A model generated the notes under the pieces. The model was not told the origin of the DNA. It searched no databases and saw nothing but the letters and a program-made list of their open reading frames with translations. From UHGV virus genome UHGV-0120322: a stretch of 16,129 nucleotides of DNA. The stretch is one strand, 5' to 3'. The stretch's first letter is position 1. Every line of letters starts with the position of its first letter. This document shows positions 50 to 16,129 of the stretch, in pieces. The position numbers were made by a program, and so were the translations under genes. Source of the stretch: a virus.

Positions 50-1213
50 TTACGCCTTCTTTATATCCTCCATAATTCCAGAGTGGGACATATTTGGGAC
101 ATTATCACCAAAAATGTCGTCTATTTTCCTCGCATGCTCTGTCAAATGATTAGGCGCAAGGTGAGCATACCTACGAACCATTTCTATGGACTCCCATCCG
201 CCCATTTCCTGAAGCACTGATAATGGGACGCCTGACTGAATCAGCCAGCTTGCCCAGGTGTGTCTGAGGTCATGGAAACGGAAATCTTCAATTCCTGCAC
301 GACGACAAGCTGATAGCCATGATGTCTTGCTGTCGATGCGCATCTTCCTGACCGCAGGCGTTGATGTTCCATCTGCTCGCTTAGCCGCCTTGGTATGTAC
401 AAACACCCATTTGTGATGCTTGCCTATTTGATCACGCAACACTTTACAGGCGGTATCGTTCAGCGCCACACCAATGGCGCGGTTTGATTTGCTCTCTTCT
501 GGATTCACCCAGGCAACTCGTCGCTGCATGTCGATTTGTTGCCATTCCAGATTTATGATGTTCGACTTTCTCAGACCAGTTGCCAGCGCAAACTTGACGA
601 CAGATTTCAGTGGTTCGGGGCACTCATCAATAAGGCGTTTTGCTTCCTCCTTTTCCAGCCATCTGACTCGCTTGTTTCTGACCGCTGGTATCTTGATGAC
701 AGGCGCTTTTTCCAGCCACTTCCAGTCGCGTTCTGCAGCACGGAGAATAGCCTTTATCATGGCAAGATGCTTTGCCTTTGTCTGAGTTGATACTGGCTTT
801 GGTTCATAAACAGGCAGTTCTTTACCTTTCCTGATGGCGGCCTGAACTTTCTGTTTCCATATTTCTTTCGTCTTTCTGTTATGCATTCTGCTTACAGCAG
901 AGTAAATCTTTGCCTCCGAGATATCTTTAAGCCTTATACCCTCAAAATGTTCAAGCCAGAACTCAATCCGGCTTTTATCTGAATCGAGAGATTTTTTATC
1001 AGCTTTTTCCTCAAGCCATCTTAGGCAGGCCTCTTCAAAAGTGACATCAGGTAAATCCCCTAGCTTTTCTACTCGCCAGAGTTCTGCTTTTCGCTTGTCG
1101 TGCAACTCCTGAGCTTGCCGCTTGTCCTTTGTGCCAAGAGATTCCTTAATTCGTTTCCCGCCCGGGAGCGAATACGAGGCATACCATATTTCATTTCTGC
1201 GGAAGAGTGACAT
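50..1213 (-). CDS. intD: Tyrosine site-specific integrase, P22/DLP12 type (387 aa)
   Basis: 387-aa ORF with C-terminal catalytic motifs (HDLRHTWAS...Y) typical of tyrosine recombinases; located next to tRNA-Arg; recognised as IntD-like. Confidence 0.95.
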
Positions 1214-2964: not shown

Positions 2965-3635
2965 TGCTCCCCAAATACAAAACCAATTTCAGCCAGTGCC
3001 TCGTCCATTTTTTCGATGAACTCCGGCACCATCTCGTTAAAACTCGCCATGTACTTTTCATCCCGCTCAACCACGACATAATGCAGTCCTTCACGCTTCA
3101 TACGCGGGTCATAGTTGGCAAAGTACCAGGCATCTTTTTGTGTCACCCACATGCTGTACTGCACCTGGGCCATGTAAGCCGATTTTATGGCCTCGAAACC
3201 ACCGAGCCGGAACTTCATGAAATCCCGGGAGGTAAACGGGCATTTCAGTTCAAGGCCGTTGCCGTCACTGCATAAACCATCGGGAGAGCAGGCGGTGCGC
3301 ATACTTTCGTCGCGATAGATGATCGGGGATTCAGTAACATTCACGCCGGAAGTGAACTCAAAGAGGGCTCTGGCGTCGTTCTCGTACTGTTTTCCCCAGG
3401 CCAGCGCCTTAGCGTTAACTTCCGGAGCCACACCGGTGCAAACCTCGGCAAGCAGGGTGTGGAAGTAGGACATTTTCATGTCAGGCCACTTCTTTCCGGA
3501 GCGGGGTTTTGCTATCACATTGTGAACTTCTGAAGCGGTGATGACGCCGAGCCGTAATTTGTGCCATGCATCATCCCCCTGTTCGACAGCTCTCACGTCG
3601 ATCCCGGTACGCTGCAGGATAATGTCCGGTGTCAT
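2955..3635 (-). CDS. exo: Lambda exonuclease, Red-alpha (226 aa), full length
   Basis: Translation [40 protein letters not shown]... recognised as essentially identical to phage lambda Exo over its full length. Confidence 0.97.
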
Positions 3636-4417
3636 GCTGCCACCTTCTGCTCAGTGGCTTTCTGTTTCAGGAATCCAAGAGCTTTCACTGCTTCGGCCTG
3701 TGTCAGTTCTGACGATGCGCGAATGTCGCGGCGAAATATCTGGGAACAGAGCGGCAATAAGTCGTCATCCCATGTTTTATCCAGGGCGATCAGCAGAGTG
3801 TTAATTTCCTGCATGGTTTCATCGTTAACCGGAGTGATGTCGCGTTCCGGCTGACGTTCTGCAGTGTATGCGGTATTTTCGACAATGCGCTCGGCTTCAT
3901 CCTTGTCATAGATACCCGCAAATCCGAAGGCCAGACGGGCACACTGAATCATGGCTTTATGCCGTAACATCCGTTTGGGATGCGACTGCCACGGTCCGGT
4001 GATTTCTCTGCCTTCGCGGGTTTTGAATGGTTCGCGGCGGCATTCATCCATCCACTCGGTAACGCAGATCGGATGATTGCGGTCTTTGCGGTAAATCCGG
4101 CATGTGCAGGATTCGTTGTCCTGTTCAAAGTTCATGCCGTCAAACTGCTGGTTTTCGTTGATGATGCGGGACCAGCCATCAACGCCCACCACCGGAACGA
4201 TGCCGTTCTGCTTATCAGGGAAGGCGTAAATTTCTTTCGTCCACGGATTAAGGCCGTACTGGTTGGCGACGATCAACAATGCGATGAACTGCGCATCGCT
4301 GGCATCACCTTTAAATGCCGTCTGGCGAAGAGTGGTGATCAGTTCCTGTGGGTCGACAGAATCCATGCCGACACGTTCAGCCAGCTTCCCAGCCAGCGTT
4401 GCGAGTGCTGTACTCAT
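3632..4417 (-). CDS. bet: Lambda Bet, Red-beta single-strand annealing protein (261 aa), full length
   Basis: Translation [59 protein letters not shown]... recognised as lambda Bet; ATGA overlap with exo. Confidence 0.97.
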
Positions 4418-4422
4418 CCGTT

Positions 4423-4533
4423 TTATACCTCTGAATCAATATCAACCTGGTGGTGAGCAATGGTTTCAACCATGTACCGGATGTGTTCTGCCATGCGCTC
4501 CTGAAACTCAACATCGTCATCAAACGCACGGGT
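4423..4533 (-). pseudogene. gam: gam fragment: only the C-terminal ~36 codons of lambda Gam ([36 protein letters not shown]) are present
   Basis: C-terminal 36 aa match lambda Gam; the N-terminal 48 aa of the 84-aa ORF (4423..4677) are unrelated and encoded antisense to P; junction at about 4531-4534. Confidence 0.85.
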
Positions 4534-5137
4534 ACAACAGGTAGCGCAGATCATCAATGGTGTGTTCAGCCAGTTACTGGCAACTTTCCCGGCGAGCCTG
4601 GCTAACCGGGACCAGAACGAACTGAACGAAATCCGCCGCCAGTGGGTTCTGGCTTTCCGGGAAAACGGGATCACCACGATGGAACAGGTTAACGCAGGAA
4701 TGCGCGTAGCCCGTCGGCAGAATCGACCATTCCTGCCATCACCCGGGCAGTTTGTTGCCTGGTGCCGGGAAGAAGCATCCGTTACCGCCGGGCTGCCAAA
4801 CGCCAGCGAGCTGGTTGATATGGTTTACGAGTATTGCCGGAAACGTGGCCTGTATCCAGATGCAGAGTCTTATCCGTGGAAATCAAACGCGCACTACTGG
4901 CTGGTTACCAACCTGTATCAGAACATGCGGGCCAATGCGCTGACTGATGCGGAATTACGGCGCAAGGCTGCCGATGAACTGGCCTGTATGACAGCGCGAA
5001 TTAACCGTGGTGAGGCGATACCTGAACCAGTAAAACAACTTCCTGTCATGGGCGGGAGACCGCTTAATCGTGTTCAGGCTCTGGCGAAGATCGCAGAAAT
5101 CAAAGCGAAGTTTGGGCTGAAAGGAGCAAGTGTATGA
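4532..5137 (+). pseudogene. peaD: Replication protein P, 5'-truncated (lacks about the first 30-40 codons and its own start/RBS); equivalent to peaD of DLP12
   Basis: Frame translates as [30 protein letters not shown]...KAKFGLKGASV, matching lambda P from about residue 33 to the C-terminus; no ATG or SD at the 5' end. Confidence 0.9.
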
Positions 5138-9546: not shown

Positions 9547-9930
9547 ATGCGTGATATTCAGATGGTTCTTGAGCGTTGGGGGGCATGGGCGGCTAATAAC
9601 CATGAGGATGTGACCTGGTCGTCCATTGCTGCCGGTTTTAAGGGATTGCTTCCTTCAAAAGTAAAATCCCGTCCGCAATGCTGTGATGATGACGCGATGA
9701 TCGTTTGCGGGTGCATGGCCCGTCTGAAAAAGAACAACAGCGATTTGCACGATTTATTAGTGGATTATTATGTCGGCGGTATGACATTCATGTCACTGGC
9801 AAGTAAGCATCGTTGCTCTGATGGTTATATCGGGAAAAAGTTACAGAAGGCTGAGGGAATAATTGAAGGGATGTTAATGGCATTAGATATCCGGTTAGAG
9901 ATGGATATCGTTGTTAATAACTCTAATTAA
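9547..9930 (+). CDS. quuD: Late-gene antiterminator Q (phage 21/82-type, QuuD-like, 127 aa)
   Basis: Start at [24 protein letters not shown]... with GGAGAAAG SD; Cys-rich centre ([12 protein letters not shown]) typical of Q-family zinc-binding antiterminators. Confidence 0.85.
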
Positions 9931-9956
9931 TACGCCAATTATTTACTAAAAGTTAT

Positions 9957-9981
9957 TAAAAATGGGGCGTTGAAACGCCCC
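9957..9981 (-). terminator. Hairpin GGGGCG-TTGAAA-CGCCCC with U-tract on the minus strand; likely terminator for leftward (nmpC-direction) transcription, protecting Q from antisense read-through
   Basis: Perfect 6-bp GC stem; A-tract on plus strand 5' side equals T-run downstream on minus strand. Confidence 0.45.
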
Positions 9982-10108
9982 CAAAAATAAAGGGTAATAT
10001 ATAACAGAAGGTTTGTATAGTTAGAAGCAAGGTTGTGCTTCTAAAGGAAGTGGCTTGAGGGAGCCACTTATATGTTGGGGAGGCAAAGCCTCCCACAACA
10101 TATCTTTT
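9964..10108 (+). promoter_or_regulatory. Late regulatory region downstream of Q: candidate pR'-type promoter (TTGAAA at 9970, TAATAT at 9995, 19-bp spacer) and three hairpins (10024-10041, 10050-10067, 10070-10103 plus CTTTT), the last a candidate tR'-like terminator
   Basis: Position immediately 3' of Q as in lambdoid phages; stem-loops read directly from sequence; promoter hexamers are weak and spacing is suboptimal. Confidence 0.35.
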
Positions 10109-10118
10109 AGTAATCAAA

Positions 10119-11201
10119 TTAGAACTGGTAAACCATACCTACAGCAACGATATCATCGGTAGCAACGCCAGATGCTTTCGTGAAATCGCTCTTATCAATC
10201 AGGTTGATTTTGTAGTCAACAAAAGTGGACATATTTTTGTTGAAGTAATAGGTTGCACCTACATCAACATATTCAACCAGGTCCTGATCACCCCAAACAC
10301 CCAAGTCTTTTCCTTTAGAATGCAGGTAAGCAACGGATGGACGCAGGCCGAAGTCGAACTGATATTGTGCAACAGCTTCGAAGTTTTGTGCTTTGTTGGC
10401 AATATGGTTATTACCAAAAACAGTCATGTTCTGGGTTTCAGAATAGGTGGTGGCCAGATAGATGTTGTTCGCATCATATTTCAGACCAGCTGCCCATACT
10501 TCAGCATTTTGACCAGAAGCATTCAGACCGTTGTTACCGTAGATAACCTGATTATTAGTGCGATCAGATTTAGCATAGGTTGCACCCACGCCGAATCCTT
10601 CATACTCATAAGTAGTTGAGAAACCGAAACCATCGCCATTAGCTTCAGTTACTTCTTTTCGGTCATTTTTGCCCTGATACTGAGCTGCAAAGTTCAGGCC
10701 ATCAACCAGACCAAAGAAGTCGTTGTTACGATAAGTTGCAACACCTGTGGTGCGACCAGTCATGAATACATCTGTTTGGGTCCAGGTATCGCCACCGAAT
10801 TCTGGCAGAACGTCGGTCCATGCACCAATATCGTATGCTACACCGTAGTTACGGCCATAATCGATGGAGCCGTAGTCACCGAATTTCAGGCCAGCGAAGG
10901 CAAGACGGGTTTTATCTTTGGAGGAACCTTGAGATTCAGCGCGGTTGCCTTTGAATTCATATTCCCACTGACCGAAACCAGTCAGTTGATCGTTGATTTG
11001 GGTTTCACCTTTGAAGCCAAGACGGGCATAAGTAGTATCACCATCATCTGCATCATTAGAGGAGAAGTAGTGCTTAGCATTAACTTTCCCGTACAGATCC
11101 AGCTTGTTACTGTCTTTATTATAAATTTCAGCTGCCTGAGCAGACATCGCCATCAGTACTGATGCAGCTACAGCAGAAATTGCCACTGTTAATTTTTTCA
11201 T
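10119..11201 (-). CDS. nmpC: Outer-membrane porin, OmpC/NmpC (Lc) family, intact (360 aa with signal peptide [23 protein letters not shown])
   Basis: Classic general-porin sequence ending in the C-terminal aromatic residue (...VGMVYQF); encoded antisense between Q and the lysis genes as in DLP12/PA-2. Confidence 0.95.
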
Positions 11202-11790
11202 CGTGAGCCCTTTTTTTTGAACTATTATTAAAAAATGATGTCACTGCGCGATAAATATTCATCTAATCAATGTGATTATTTCAAGATGTAAGTTTTGGTT
11301 TCTCGTTTAATTTGTGAAGTAGATCTCTATTTTTATCTGAACTTTTTTCTATCGAATCCTATTCATGGCTCTTGGCTGAATAAAAATAAATCTATTAGCC
11401 AATTTATATTAATGGCTGTTATTTATGGGGGGTCTATAATTCGATGGTTTAATTTAAATTAACTAAAAATAACGCCGGAAATTATTTATTGGTTATTTGT
11501 TGAGGTTTTCTTATGTATTTGTGGTGGTGTTTTGAACACTCGGTAGCATTCTCATAAATATCATTCAGTGGTTTACGTACGTAAAAAATTGGTTATGCTG
11601 TTAAGAGTGGTTACTTCGTCACACAGCTTAAACCCGCCGTCGAGCTGGTTTTTCCATTTTTTGAGTCTCGATATTAGCTGATAACTCAATACCTGAGTTA
11701 TTCACTGACTCCGAGTCTGTTACGTTTCTGCTTTTTTGCGATACGTTGTATTCCCTCAATTTACACCCGCTTTGTCTGCGAGGTGGGGTT

Positions 11791-12006
11791 ATGAAATCCA
11801 TGGATAAGTTAACAACGGGTGTCGCCTATGGCACCTCAGCAGGTAGTGCCGGTTACTGGTTTTTACAGCTGCTCGATAAAGTCACGCCCTCACAGTGGGC
11901 AGCAATAGGTGTGCTGGGTAGCCTGGTATTTGGCCTGCTGACGTACCTGACAAACCTTTATTTCAAGATTAAAGAAGATAAGCGCAAGGCTGCGAGAGGT
12001 GAATAA
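11791..12006 (+). CDS. essD: Class II holin (phage 21 S-type pinholin, 71 aa) with dual-start motif MKSM
   Basis: [71 protein letters not shown], two TM segments; GAGGTGG SD; the upstream in-frame ATG at 11746 lacks an SD. Confidence 0.9.
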
Positions 12007-12503
12007 TGCCTCCATCATTACGAAAAGCAGTTGCTGCTGCTATTGGTGGCGGAGCAATTGCTATAGCATCAGTGTTAATCACTGGCCCAAGTGGTGACGA
12101 TGGCCTGGAAGGTGTCAGCTACATACCATACAAAGATATCGTTGGCGTATGGACTGTATGTCACGGACACACCGGAAAAGACATCATGCTCGGTAAAACG
12201 TATACCGAAGCAGAATGCAAAGCCCTCCTGAATAAAGACCTTGCCACGGTTGCCAGACAAATTAACCCGTACATCAAAGTCGATATACCGGAAACAACGC
12301 GCGGCGCTCTTTACTCGTTCGTCTACAACGTGGGTGCTGGCAATTTCAGAACATCGACGCTTCTTCGCAAAATAAACCAGGGTGATATTAAAGGCGCATG
12401 TGATCAGCTACGGCGCTGGACATACGCTGGCGGTAATCAATGGAAAGGACTGATGACTCGCCGTGAGATTGAGCGTGAAGTCTGTTTGTGGGGGAAACAA
12501 TGA
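12006..12503 (+). CDS. rrrD: SAR endolysin (phage 21 R-type lysozyme, 165 aa)
   Basis: N-terminal Gly/Ala-rich signal-anchor-release segment ([20 protein letters not shown]) followed by a lysozyme domain; immediately after the holin. Confidence 0.95.
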
Positions 12504-12958
12504 GCAGAGTAACCGCGATTATCTCCGCTCTGGTTATCTGCATCATCGTCTGCCTGTCATTGGCTGTTAATCATTACCGTGATAACGCAATCGCCTACAA
12601 AGAGCAGCGCGATAACAAGGCCAGTGAACTGGAGAAGGCGAACGCCACCATCGCTGACATGCGGAAGCGTCAACGTGATGTAGCAGAACTCGACGCAAGA
12701 TACACAAAGGAGCTTGCTGATGCTAACGCGACTATCGAAAGTCTCCGTGCTGATGTTTCTGCTGGGCGTAAGCGCCTGCAAGTCGCCGCCACCTGTGCAA
12801 AGTCAACGACCGGAGCCAGCGGCATGGGCGATGGAGAAAGCCCAGGACTTACAGCAGATGCTGAACTCAATTATTACCGTCTCCGAAGTGGAATCGACAA
12901 GATAACCGCGCAGGTTAACTACCTGCAGGAATACATCAGGACGCAATGCCTGAAATAA
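12500..12958 (+). CDS. rzpD: Rz i-spanin (inner-membrane spanin subunit)
   Basis: ATGA overlap with endolysin stop; N-terminal TM helix ([20 protein letters not shown]) then coiled-coil-like periplasmic domain. Confidence 0.85.
12714..12905 (+). CDS. rzoD: Rz1 o-spanin lipoprotein embedded in the +1 frame of Rz (63 aa precursor; lipobox VSAC; proline-rich mature part)
   Basis: AAGGAG SD 7 nt upstream of ATG inside Rz; signal peptide plus lipobox Cys, then [12 protein letters not shown]. Confidence 0.8.
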
Positions 12959-13014: not shown

Positions 13015-13163
13015 ACATCTGAATTTCACAGCGCATCTCACGCGCATATTACATCACCCGAGCCTTTCAGAAAGTTGAGCCTGAGAACTGCCGTATATGG
13101 TGGCGACCATCTCGGGGCGGCTTTTCTGTGAGACAGGCTCACTTTCTAAAAGGTAAAGACGCT

Positions 13164-13652
13164 ATGAACCAATTAGAAGAAAAGCTTCAAAGAATGATTT
13201 CCTTATACAAGGAAGATAACTGCCAAAAAGTTCCTGAAAACATCGCAGAGTTAATGGAATTGGCAAGTGAATTTTCTGGCATGCTTAAGTCGTCAGGTGT
13301 TCGGTCAGCGTTCTTTGTTGAAATGCTGATGCACGGCGGACTTATGGCAACAATGAGACGTGTAATGGAAGACCAGAGAAAAGAACCTCCTCAGGTATAC
13401 GTTTTGTCATCGAAGAAAACTGGGCTAACCAAAATTGGGTATTCATCCAACATTCCACAACGCATCAAATCGCTTGGCAACTCTGGACCAGACTGCTTGA
13501 AGCTTGAGTGCCTGATCCCTGGTGGAAGAGAAACTGAAAACATGCTTCATCGCAAATTTGCCGCAAAGAGAAAGCACGGTGAATGGTTCGCCCTGTCCAA
13601 GGATGACATTGAGGGATTGAAATCTGTAGCGATTACTTCTGATGGCTATTAA
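13164..13652 (+). CDS. GIY-YIG superfamily / T5orf172-domain protein (162 aa): helical N-terminal region plus C-terminal T5orf172-like nuclease-fold domain
   Basis: C-terminal motifs VYVLSSKKTGLTKIGYSSN ... R ... E ... GEWF match the T5orf172 (GIY-YIG-like) pattern; AAGG SD; sits where lambda carries bor; lower GC than the lysis genes. Confidence 0.7.
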   Translation: MNQLEEKLQRMISLYKEDNCQKVPENIAELMELASEFSGMLKSSGVRSAFFVEMLMHGGLMATMRRVMEDQRKEPPQVYVLSSKKTGLTKIGYSSNIPQRIKSLGNSGPDCLKLECLIPGGRETENMLHRKFAAKRKHGEWFALSKDDIEGLKSVAITSDGY

Positions 13653-15189: not shown

Positions 15190-15420
15190 TTATCATTTTG
15201 CGGGTCCTTTCCGGCGATCCGACAGGTTACGGGGCGGCGACCTCGCGGGTTTTCGCTATTTATGAAAATTTTCCGGTTTAAGGTGTTTCCGTTCTTCTTC
15301 GTCGTAACTTAATGTTTTTATTTAAAATACCCCCTGAAAAGAAAGGAAACGACAGGTGCTGAAAACGGGCTTTTTGGCCTCTGTCGTTTCCTTTCTCTGT
15401 TTTTGTCCGTGGAATGAACA
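15190..15420. other. Lambda-type cos site: cosQ-side right-end sequence, cosN 12-nt cohesive end GGGCGGCGACCT at 15232-15243, cosB region up to the Nu1 start
   Basis: ...CCGACAGGTTACG|GGGCGGCGACCTCGCGGGTTTTCGCTATTTATGAAAATTTTCCGGTTTAAGG... recognised as the joined right and left ends of phage lambda with a few substitutions. Confidence 0.85.
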
Positions 15421-15648
15421 ATGGAAGTCAACAAAAAGCAGCTGGCTGACATTTTCGGTGCGAGTATCCGTACCATTCAGAACTGGCAGGAACAGGGAAT
15501 GCCCGTTCTGCGAGGCGGTGGCAAGGGTAATGAGGTGCTTTATGACTCTGCCGCCGTCATAAAATGGTATGCCGAAAGGGATGCTGAAATTGAGAACGAA
15601 AACCCGGCATCTGATGCCGTTAACGATTTGCTGAACACACCAGTGTAA
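15421..15648 (+). pseudogene. Terminase small subunit Nu1, N-terminal ~60 codons only, fused in frame to an unrelated 15-codon tail
   Basis: MEVNKKQLADIFGASIRTIQNWQEQGMPVLRGGGKGNEVLYDSAAVIKWYAERDAEIENE matches lambda Nu1 (winged-helix DNA-binding domain); the remainder NPASDAVNDLLNTPV does not. Confidence 0.85.
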
Positions 15649-15657
15649 GGGATGTTT

Positions 15658-15828
15658 ATGACGAGCAAAGAAACCTTTACCCATTACCAGCCGCTGGGCA
15701 ACAGTGACCCGGCTCATACCGCAACCGCGCCCGGCGGATTGAGTGCGAAAGCGCCTGCAATGACCCCGCTGATGCCGGATAAGTGGTGTGTAAATTCTAG
15801 CCCCATCATCTGTGTTTTTTTTCATTAA
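15658..15828 (+). pseudogene. Head decoration protein D fragment (first ~39 codons of lambda gpD, then unrelated sequence to a stop)
   Basis: [39 protein letters not shown] matches the lambda gpD N-terminus; diverges after PLM. Confidence 0.8.
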
Positions 15829-15893
15829 TTTCACCATGTTATAGTTTTATTTGTGAATTAAATCAATTATGGCAATGAATTACAAGGGGTTAA

Positions 15894-16129
15894 ATGCTGC
15901 CGCAGCATAGCGATATTGAAATAGCCTGGTATGCTTCAATACAGCAGGAGCCGAATGGCTGGAAGACCGTCACCACACAGTTCTACATCCAGGAATTCAG
16001 TGAGTATATTGCGCCACTGCAGGATGCTGTAGATCTGGAAATCGCAACGGAGGAAGAAAGATCGTTGCTGGAAGCCTGAAAAAAGTATCGGGTGCTGCTA
16101 AACCGTGTGGACACTTCCGTAGCACCAGA
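15894..16129 (+). pseudogene. Tail-fibre assembly protein (Tfa family) C-terminal fragment with in-frame TGA at 16077-16079 replacing the conserved Trp; runs off the window end
   Basis: ...[40 protein letters not shown] matches the Tfa C-terminal consensus ([17 protein letters not shown]) apart from the stop. Confidence 0.75.

Follow-up and report, generated by a model that had tools for sequence, protein, structure and literature searches.

The Lc porin was described in the 1970s and 1980s, and NmpC, together with the prophage DLP12, in the 1980s. The promoter of the K-12 gene (PnmpC) is a sigma70 promoter with a mapped transcription start site, located inside the 199 bp before the start codon; it is activated by CRP, and its repressors are OmpR, IHF, and MprA (PMC11677980). 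In K-12 NCM3722, where nmpC is intact, NmpC amounts to about 2% of the proteome and falls in the carbon-limitation sector, and OmpC is reduced more than 10-fold relative to MG1655, a proteome-level account published in 2021 (PMC8144880). Trimeric-pore conductance in lipid bilayers has been credited to NmpC, a sister allele of the porin considered here (Hindahl 1984, as cited in PMC8144880). The sRNA ipeX, described in 2006, was reported to repress ompC and ompF. For the Q antiterminator of DLP12, Q-dependent read-through into the lysis genes S, R, and Rz was reported (Rueggeberg 2013, as cited in PMC7918800). The gene, its IS5-split twin in K-12, its promoter, the ipeX RNA, and the high expression of the gene when intact have all been published previously, and the protein is common in RefSeq.

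We consider it highly likely that the locus analyzed here holds a functional NmpC/Lc allele, borne in reverse orientation, as a moron, by a defective DLP12-like prophage, with its own promoter and ipeX, and placed between Q and the late promoter. The single point on which the initial annotation has to be corrected is the position of that late promoter, as the porin module is probably shielded from late transcription in elements of the DLP12/PA-2 type.

The stretch of DNA that was analyzed (16,129 nucleotides of UHGV virus genome UHGV-0120322, hereafter the window) is a lambdoid prophage of the DLP12 type. In the best-matching genomes, tRNA-Arg (argU) adjoins the element, as it does DLP12 in K-12; a tRNA scan of the window found none. 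Flanked by Q on one side and the lysis genes on the other, the porin gene is read in the opposite direction to both, in the following arrangement.

50–1213, minus strand: intD, followed by exo, bet, and a gam remnant
after the gam remnant: a 5'-truncated P, ren, genes of the nin region, rusA, and ylcG, and then Q
9547–9930, plus strand: Q, an antiterminator of the quuD type (Pfam Phage_antitermQ, E 6e-54), convergent with the porin gene
10119–11201, minus strand: porin coding sequence of 360 aa with an ATG start, an NmpC/Lc (OmpD-like) allele
11791–12006, plus strand: S21-type holin S (Pfam Phage_holin_2_1, E 2e-35)
12006–12503, plus strand: lysozyme R (Pfam Phage_lysozyme, E 2.5e-45)
12488–12958, plus strand: Rz (Pfam Phage_lysis, E 2e-39)
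11791–12958, plus strand: the S/R/Rz lysis cassette as a whole, followed by ybcV/ylcI-like genes and a tail-fibre-assembly fragment

The 3' remnant of gam is joined to the 5'-truncated P at 4525–4562, so that the entire segment for immunity and early control (kil, cIII, N, cI, cro, cII, and O) has been deleted. None of 5,426 complete E. coli genomes contained this exact gam–P junction in one piece; the closest of them spread a 300-bp query over about 610 bp. The window contains no nohD, no terminase gene, and no virion gene apart from the tail-fibre-assembly fragment, an absence that suggests another large deletion affecting the late region. What remains is a defective prophage and not an inducible lysogen, and for this reason the porin behaves as a resident host gene instead of as the trait of an inducible lysogen. 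The initial annotation had spoken of lysogenic conversion; an intact porin is indeed borne by the prophage, and the term is a loose one for a remnant with a gam–P fusion that has lost N, cI, cro, and O. Two additional ORFs were observed to the right of the lysis genes. Just past Rz lies a 174-aa ORF (13128–13652, plus strand) with GIY-YIG-type domains (MUG113, T5orf172), at a place where DLP12 of K-12 has borD on the opposite strand, and an ORF of 171 aa without a match in Pfam (15322–15837, minus strand) precedes the short Caudo_TAP tail-fibre-assembly fragment (15894–16079, plus strand).

In the ORF listing of the window, the porin gene is one uninterrupted ORF that corresponds exactly to 10119–11201 on the minus strand. 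Its product matched the Pfam family Porin_1 (PF00267) over the full length of the profile (porin residues 29–360 against positions 1–337 of 337; E 3e-152), with a score of 507.3 bits against a cutoff of 23.7. Among the NCBIfam models, the OmpC subfamily model was passed (515.5 bits, cutoff 484), and the scores for the PhoE equivalog NF007544 (505.7, cutoff 599) and the OmpF equivalog NF007446 (480.1, cutoff 583) fell below the respective cutoffs. Because both equivalog cutoffs were missed and only the broader OmpC subfamily model was passed, the porin is neither PhoE nor OmpF. The solved chains of OmpC, OmpK36, OmpK37, PhoE, and OmpF aligned from their residue 1 to the end with porin residues 24–360 (E down to 1e-135), which places the start of the mature protein at the end of the signal peptide.

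11133–11201, minus strand: signal peptide of 23 codons with cleavage after AQA, equal to the sig_peptide of J02580; the solved mature porins start at residue 24

These first 23 residues show no difference from the annotated sig_peptide of the PA-2 lc gene (J02580). The motif of the L3 constriction loop was found at residues 131–138 (VLPEFGGD, containing PEFGG), and the C terminus (...GMVYQF) has the terminal Phe of the outer-membrane beta-signal. An AlphaFold2 model built with 24 homologues, of moderate confidence (pLDDT 67.6), contained 16 predicted strand segments, and in Foldseek it matched OmpC, OmpK36, and OmpF with TM values of 0.83–0.87. The sequence at 10119–11201 is thus an intact general diffusion porin gene of the NmpC/Lc type, and the description of the ORF in the initial annotation as complete, with a signal peptide and a C-terminal Phe, is borne out by the end-to-end Porin_1 match, the signal peptide identical to that of J02580, and the ending ...VYQF.

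The initial annotation had also named a frameshift on precise alignment as a possible flaw of the gene; the alignments revealed none. The porin is identical at 330 of 360 positions (91.7%) to PA-2 Lc and equally to K-12 NmpC, from which IS5 had been taken out in silico before the comparison. With respect to Lc, there are just two indels, both in frame, of 3 and 2 codons. By the predicted topology, 26 of the 35 alignment columns that differ from Lc, both indels included, fall in surface loops L4, L5, L6, and L8, and 28 of the 35 columns that differ from the IS5-less NmpC would lie in loops L3, L4, L5, L6, and L8. Such a clustering of differences in loops is the pattern usual among porin alleles. 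The disruption of the K-12 DLP12 copy by an insertion element, to which attention had been drawn from the start, is confirmed by the genome record (NC_000913.3), where IS5B is located near the 3' end of the gene and the K-12 ORF enters IS5 after ...DFTK.

The protein is exactly RefSeq WP_024238521.1. The same coding sequence was present in the two genomes that were compared, and the exact protein occurs on at least 1000 contigs. The cluster formed around it at 90% has 2741 member sequences, Shigella proteins among them. Three temperate phages that have been isolated, ev099, ev243, and PhiR70_1, encode porins 99.4–99.7% identical to it, and 42 phage records, including P7 and a phage 434 record, have a porin of the NmpC/Lc type. 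The same layout of Q, opposite-strand porin, and lysis genes was observed in K-12, in PA-2, and in 36 phage records. A porin match at 80% coverage or more was obtained in 2463 of 5426 complete E. coli genomes, a figure that is not a count of intact genes, because the search joins pieces across a 1.2-kb IS. In a separate observation, the NmpC-type porin of OL657227.1 (Escherichia phage 434) is annotated with "IS5 insertion after codon 346", a disruption like that of the K-12 DLP12 copy, which suggests that the late region of this phage 434 was derived from the K-12 qsr'/DLP12 prophage.

The region upstream of the porin gene was compared with the characterized K-12 promoter and with the PA-2 record.

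11202–11401, minus strand: porin promoter region PnmpC, 99.0% identical to K-12 over −1 to −200
11313–11328, within PnmpC: pair of CRP half-sites, TGTGA-N6-TCTCT, with a CAP site at the equivalent position in J02580

Judged by this similarity, the window allele would be expected to behave like K-12 NmpC. The gene is real and intact, and it is very probably expressed. The initial annotation had proposed outer-membrane proteomics of the source strain as a check of its view that expression would alter the outer membrane; such an experiment is in effect already done for the sister allele in NCM3722, and that view agrees with the NmpC and OmpC levels found there and with the ipeX 3' UTR described below. 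In a comparison over 9900–11500 with E. coli CFSAN061772, there were 11 substitutions, every one of them within the 62 bp of 11427–11488, and the sequences were otherwise identical; this segment of the AT-rich spacer between the porin and S looks like a small recombination patch. It was also observed that porin codons 5–7 (11181–11187, minus strand; mRNA ACAGUGGC) are complementary to the 5' seed of the sRNA RybB, which we take to be GCCACUG. In E. coli, nmpC is a reported RybB target (PMC3333887).

Between the porin stop codon and the Q stop codon there are 188 bp, with 96% column identity to the sequence downstream of K-12 nmpC and PA-2 lc. Nearly the entire spacer is occupied by the ipeX 3' UTR.

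9952–10118, minus strand: 3' UTR of the porin gene, homologous to ipeX sRNA, of about 167 nt, with three stem-loops and then a terminator
9954–9981, minus strand: intrinsic terminator of the porin/ipeX transcript, GGGGCG-TTTCAA-CGCCCC followed by ATTTTTAATA, with the hairpin at 9964–9981, from a terminator scan and folding

When folded on the porin strand, the ipeX region was strongly structured (z-score −8.5), and all six differences from K-12 are at positions predicted to be unpaired. An Rfam scan of the whole window returned zero families, and ipeX is apparently absent from Rfam. The sRNA svsR (PMC12247714), which was also considered, is a different prophage sRNA that lies in cI, and is not ipeX.

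In the mechanism that we propose, the protein would be an OmpD-like general diffusion porin of 16 strands, encoded by a reverse-oriented moron at argU. Transcription would run leftward from the CRP-activated sigma70 promoter PnmpC, the signal peptide of 23 residues would lead to export, and the product would form a trimeric pore in the outer membrane. The same transcript would carry ipeX (about 167 nt) and would stop at the intrinsic terminator, just short of the stop codon of Q, and ipeX would in turn lower OmpC and OmpF post-transcriptionally. The net effect would be the replacement of OmpC by the prophage porin, chiefly under carbon limitation, with altered permeability and an altered receptor surface for phages and colicins. 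With the porin module inserted between Q and its cognate late promoter, Q acting in trans would drive S-R-Rz without antisense transcription of the porin, and solely read-through from nin–Q could give antisense RNA. Prophage porins alter antibiotic permeability and the phage/colicin receptor surface, and therefore they matter for strain phenotypes.

The position of the late promoter was addressed by comparison with the Shiga toxin phages 933W and H-19B. The Q protein, annotated as quuD in matching genomes, is 77% identical in amino acids to Q of 933W. The structures of Q21 (6p18 and 6jnx) were also considered as a guide to the Q-binding site, and were dropped in favor of 933W and H-19B, as the match of our Q to Q21 is distant (E 1e-8). 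In the two phages, a pR'/tR' region comes directly after Q; its homologue in the window is an 85-bp block at 11571–11654, between the porin start and S.

11571–11614, plus strand: putative pR'-like late promoter, with −35 TTTACG (11572–11577), N16, −10 TATGCT (11594–11599), and the conserved TAAGAGTGGTTAC (11602–11614)
11626–11655, plus strand: putative tR'-like hairpin and T run, aligned with the tR' feature of 933W, weakened by the T at 11646

In 933W and H-19B, the segment that starts at the Q stop codon comprises TTTACG-N16-TATCAT, then the conserved TAAGAGTGGTTAC, and then a GC hairpin plus T run, and the 933W record (Y10775.2) labels its parts "promoter, putative; homologous to pR'" and "terminator, putative; homologous to tR'". 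In DLP12 of K-12 and in PA-2, the homologous block is likewise located between the porin start codon and S. The conserved pR' block was found in 362 phage records, and in the window it is present as a single copy (11571–11614). Since the block at 11571–11654 lies beyond the porin start, Q-dependent late transcripts should begin past the porin. That the block is a working late promoter is presumed from its homology, and its hexamers (TTTACG-N16-TATGCT) are weak, with 8 of 12 positions agreeing with the consensus, and were missed by the promoter scan. The initial annotation had placed the porin antisense to the late operon and had concluded that late transcripts must cross it. The orientation stands, as the porin is encoded in reverse with respect to both Q and S/R/Rz, and the crossing is not supported, given the pR'-like block at 11571–11654: late transcripts probably do not traverse the porin in antisense.

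For the leader of 54–56 nt, the minimum free energy came to −8.6 kcal/mol in the window, compared with −14.1 for K-12 and −22.2 for 933W. Position 11646 is a T here and in PA-2, and a G in K-12 and 933W; with the hairpin weakened by T11646, transcription of the lysis genes could be less dependent on Q. The second CAP site of the 1986 PA-2 record corresponds to 11606–11626 of the window and thus falls on the pR'-like leader block (…AGTGGTTACTTCGTCACACAG), and the conservation of this segment may reflect Q/late-promoter function instead of CRP binding.

A published DLP12 reporter bears on the same spacer. The primer Pdlp12Fw of the S-R-Rz lux fusion, stated to have its end at −121 (after Rueggeberg 2015), maps to 11129, so that the reporter fragment lies wholly to the right of 11129, over the spacer between the porin and S. 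Taking 11129 as −121 puts the +1 near 11250, which again lies rightward of the porin start codon. A candidate promoter is found at this place.

11218–11245, plus strand: possible sigmaE-type rightward promoter inferred from tGAACTa-N16-TCACT, with a predicted +1 near 11250, back-to-back with the porin promoter

The assignment follows what we take to be the sigmaE consensus.

Other phages have other cargo in the interval from Q to S. In PhiR55_1, which has a Q of the same family, a reverse ORF of 148 aa (690–1136 of the phage piece, minus strand) lies between Q and the pR'-like block, immediately before the latter, and in mEp460_4F5, also with this Q family, a reverse ORF of 308 aa (210–1136 of the phage piece, minus strand) is directly upstream of the block. 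Neither ORF had a Pfam match. In Lambda_4B5, whose Q is 85% identical in DNA, a promoter-like site and a terminator come right past Q, followed by a reverse-strand gene for the lipocalin Blc (3182–3706 of the phage piece, minus strand). The pR'-like block was looked for in Lambda_4B5 from Q up to S and was absent, so the link between Q and the block is not universal, as this phage lacks the block despite a related Q.

Three other readings of the locus were weighed. The one that fares best, and that we still judge unlikely, is that the porin is transcribed in antisense by delayed-early read-through from nin–Q, which would modulate the porin and IpeX by transcriptional interference or RNA pairing. 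It is favored by the geometry, as Q and the porin are convergent with stop codons just 188 bp apart, and by the terminators: the minus-strand hairpin at 9964–9981 has no T run on the plus strand, and a plus-strand hairpin at about 10071–10101 is followed by four Ts and no more. With the immunity region deleted, however, N and pR are absent, and four strong hairpins stand in the path. Such antisense RNA should therefore be limited, there being no antitermination.

That the porin is intact yet silent, quiescent in a dead prophage and with no effect on the envelope in normal conditions, seems to us a good deal less probable than its expression, and we regard it as improbable. In its favor are the defective state of the prophage, the long AT-rich stretch upstream of the gene, the word "quiescent" applied to nmpC of E. 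coli B in the title of Prilipov 1998, and the repression of K-12 PnmpC by OmpR, IHF, and MprA. Against this, the transcriptionally active K-12 PnmpC and the promoter region here share 99% identity, the intact DLP12 nmpC yields about 2% of the NCM3722 proteome, and the exact protein recurs undecayed on at least 1000 contigs.

The idea that the late promoter directly follows Q, as in lambda, with Q-modified transcripts crossing the porin in antisense before S, is very improbable: the pR'-like block of 933W and H-19B does begin at the Q stop codon, Lambda_4B5 has the promoter-like site, terminator, and reverse lipocalin gene after its related Q, and the plus strand of the Q–porin spacer folds into hairpins, the last followed by CUUUU, but the consensus promoter scan found no promoter-like site in this spacer (9931–10118), which is nearly all ipeX, the sole copy of the pR' block in the window is at 11571–11614, and the regulatory fragment of the DLP12 lysis operon is entirely to the right of 11129.

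Starting again from a functional porin allele between Q and the late promoter, a broader and highly speculative idea, to which we give little credence, is that in this Q family the interval from Q to a displaced pR' is a dedicated slot, insulated from transcription, for reverse cargo with its own promoter, such as the porin with ipeX here and the ORFs of PhiR55_1 and mEp460_4F5. The convergent transcripts would meet at ipeX, and either read-through from nin–Q upon induction would produce an anti-IpeX RNA that lifts the repression of OmpC and OmpF, or read-through from the porin would damp Q. If so, envelope remodelling would be coupled to the lysis decision by either route.

The comparison with known systems can be made at several distances. 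The stx genes of 933W and H-19B resemble the porin module in being cargo between Q and S, and have in common with it the Q family (77% in amino acids) and the pR'/tR' block. They are located downstream of pR'–tR', on the late strand, and are expressed with the late genes, whereas the porin module, with a promoter of its own and in the reverse orientation, precedes the block and separates Q from pR'. Also more distant are OmpC, OmpF, and PhoE of E. coli (2j1n, 2zfg, and 1pho), with which the window porin, by its predicted model, has in common the fold (TM 0.83–0.90), as well as the PEFGG motif of L3 and the C-terminal Phe, although identity is just 59–64%; in addition, the window porin is prophage-borne and, according to the literature on its relatives, CRP-activated, unlike the control of ompC. 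The closest relatives outside prophages are the OmpD proteins of Salmonella and Citrobacter, which are 78–82% identical over the full length and also belong to the Porin_1 family; ompD is chromosomal and does not have the phage neighbors Q and S that flank the porin here.

PA-2 Lc (J02580) is similar in its opposite-strand placement, with the Q region on one side and the lysis genes on the other. The record has an annotated CAP site, the signal peptide and the first 98 residues are identical, and the 3' UTR is shared. PA-2, however, is a viable converting phage, and the element in the window is a defective remnant; the loop sequences of the two porins also differ. The nearest system is NmpC in the DLP12 (qsr') prophage of K-12, in which the locus (argU, intD ... 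quuD, porin, essD, rrrD, rzpD) and the orientation are equal, and the ipeX 3' UTR (about 95–96%), the promoter region (99%), and the pR'-like block (98%) are nearly identical. The two prophages differ in their internal deletions, with gam fused to P here, and the window allele is 5 residues shorter than K-12 NmpC. In MG1655, IS5B interrupts nmpC after about codon 346; the copy in the window is whole.
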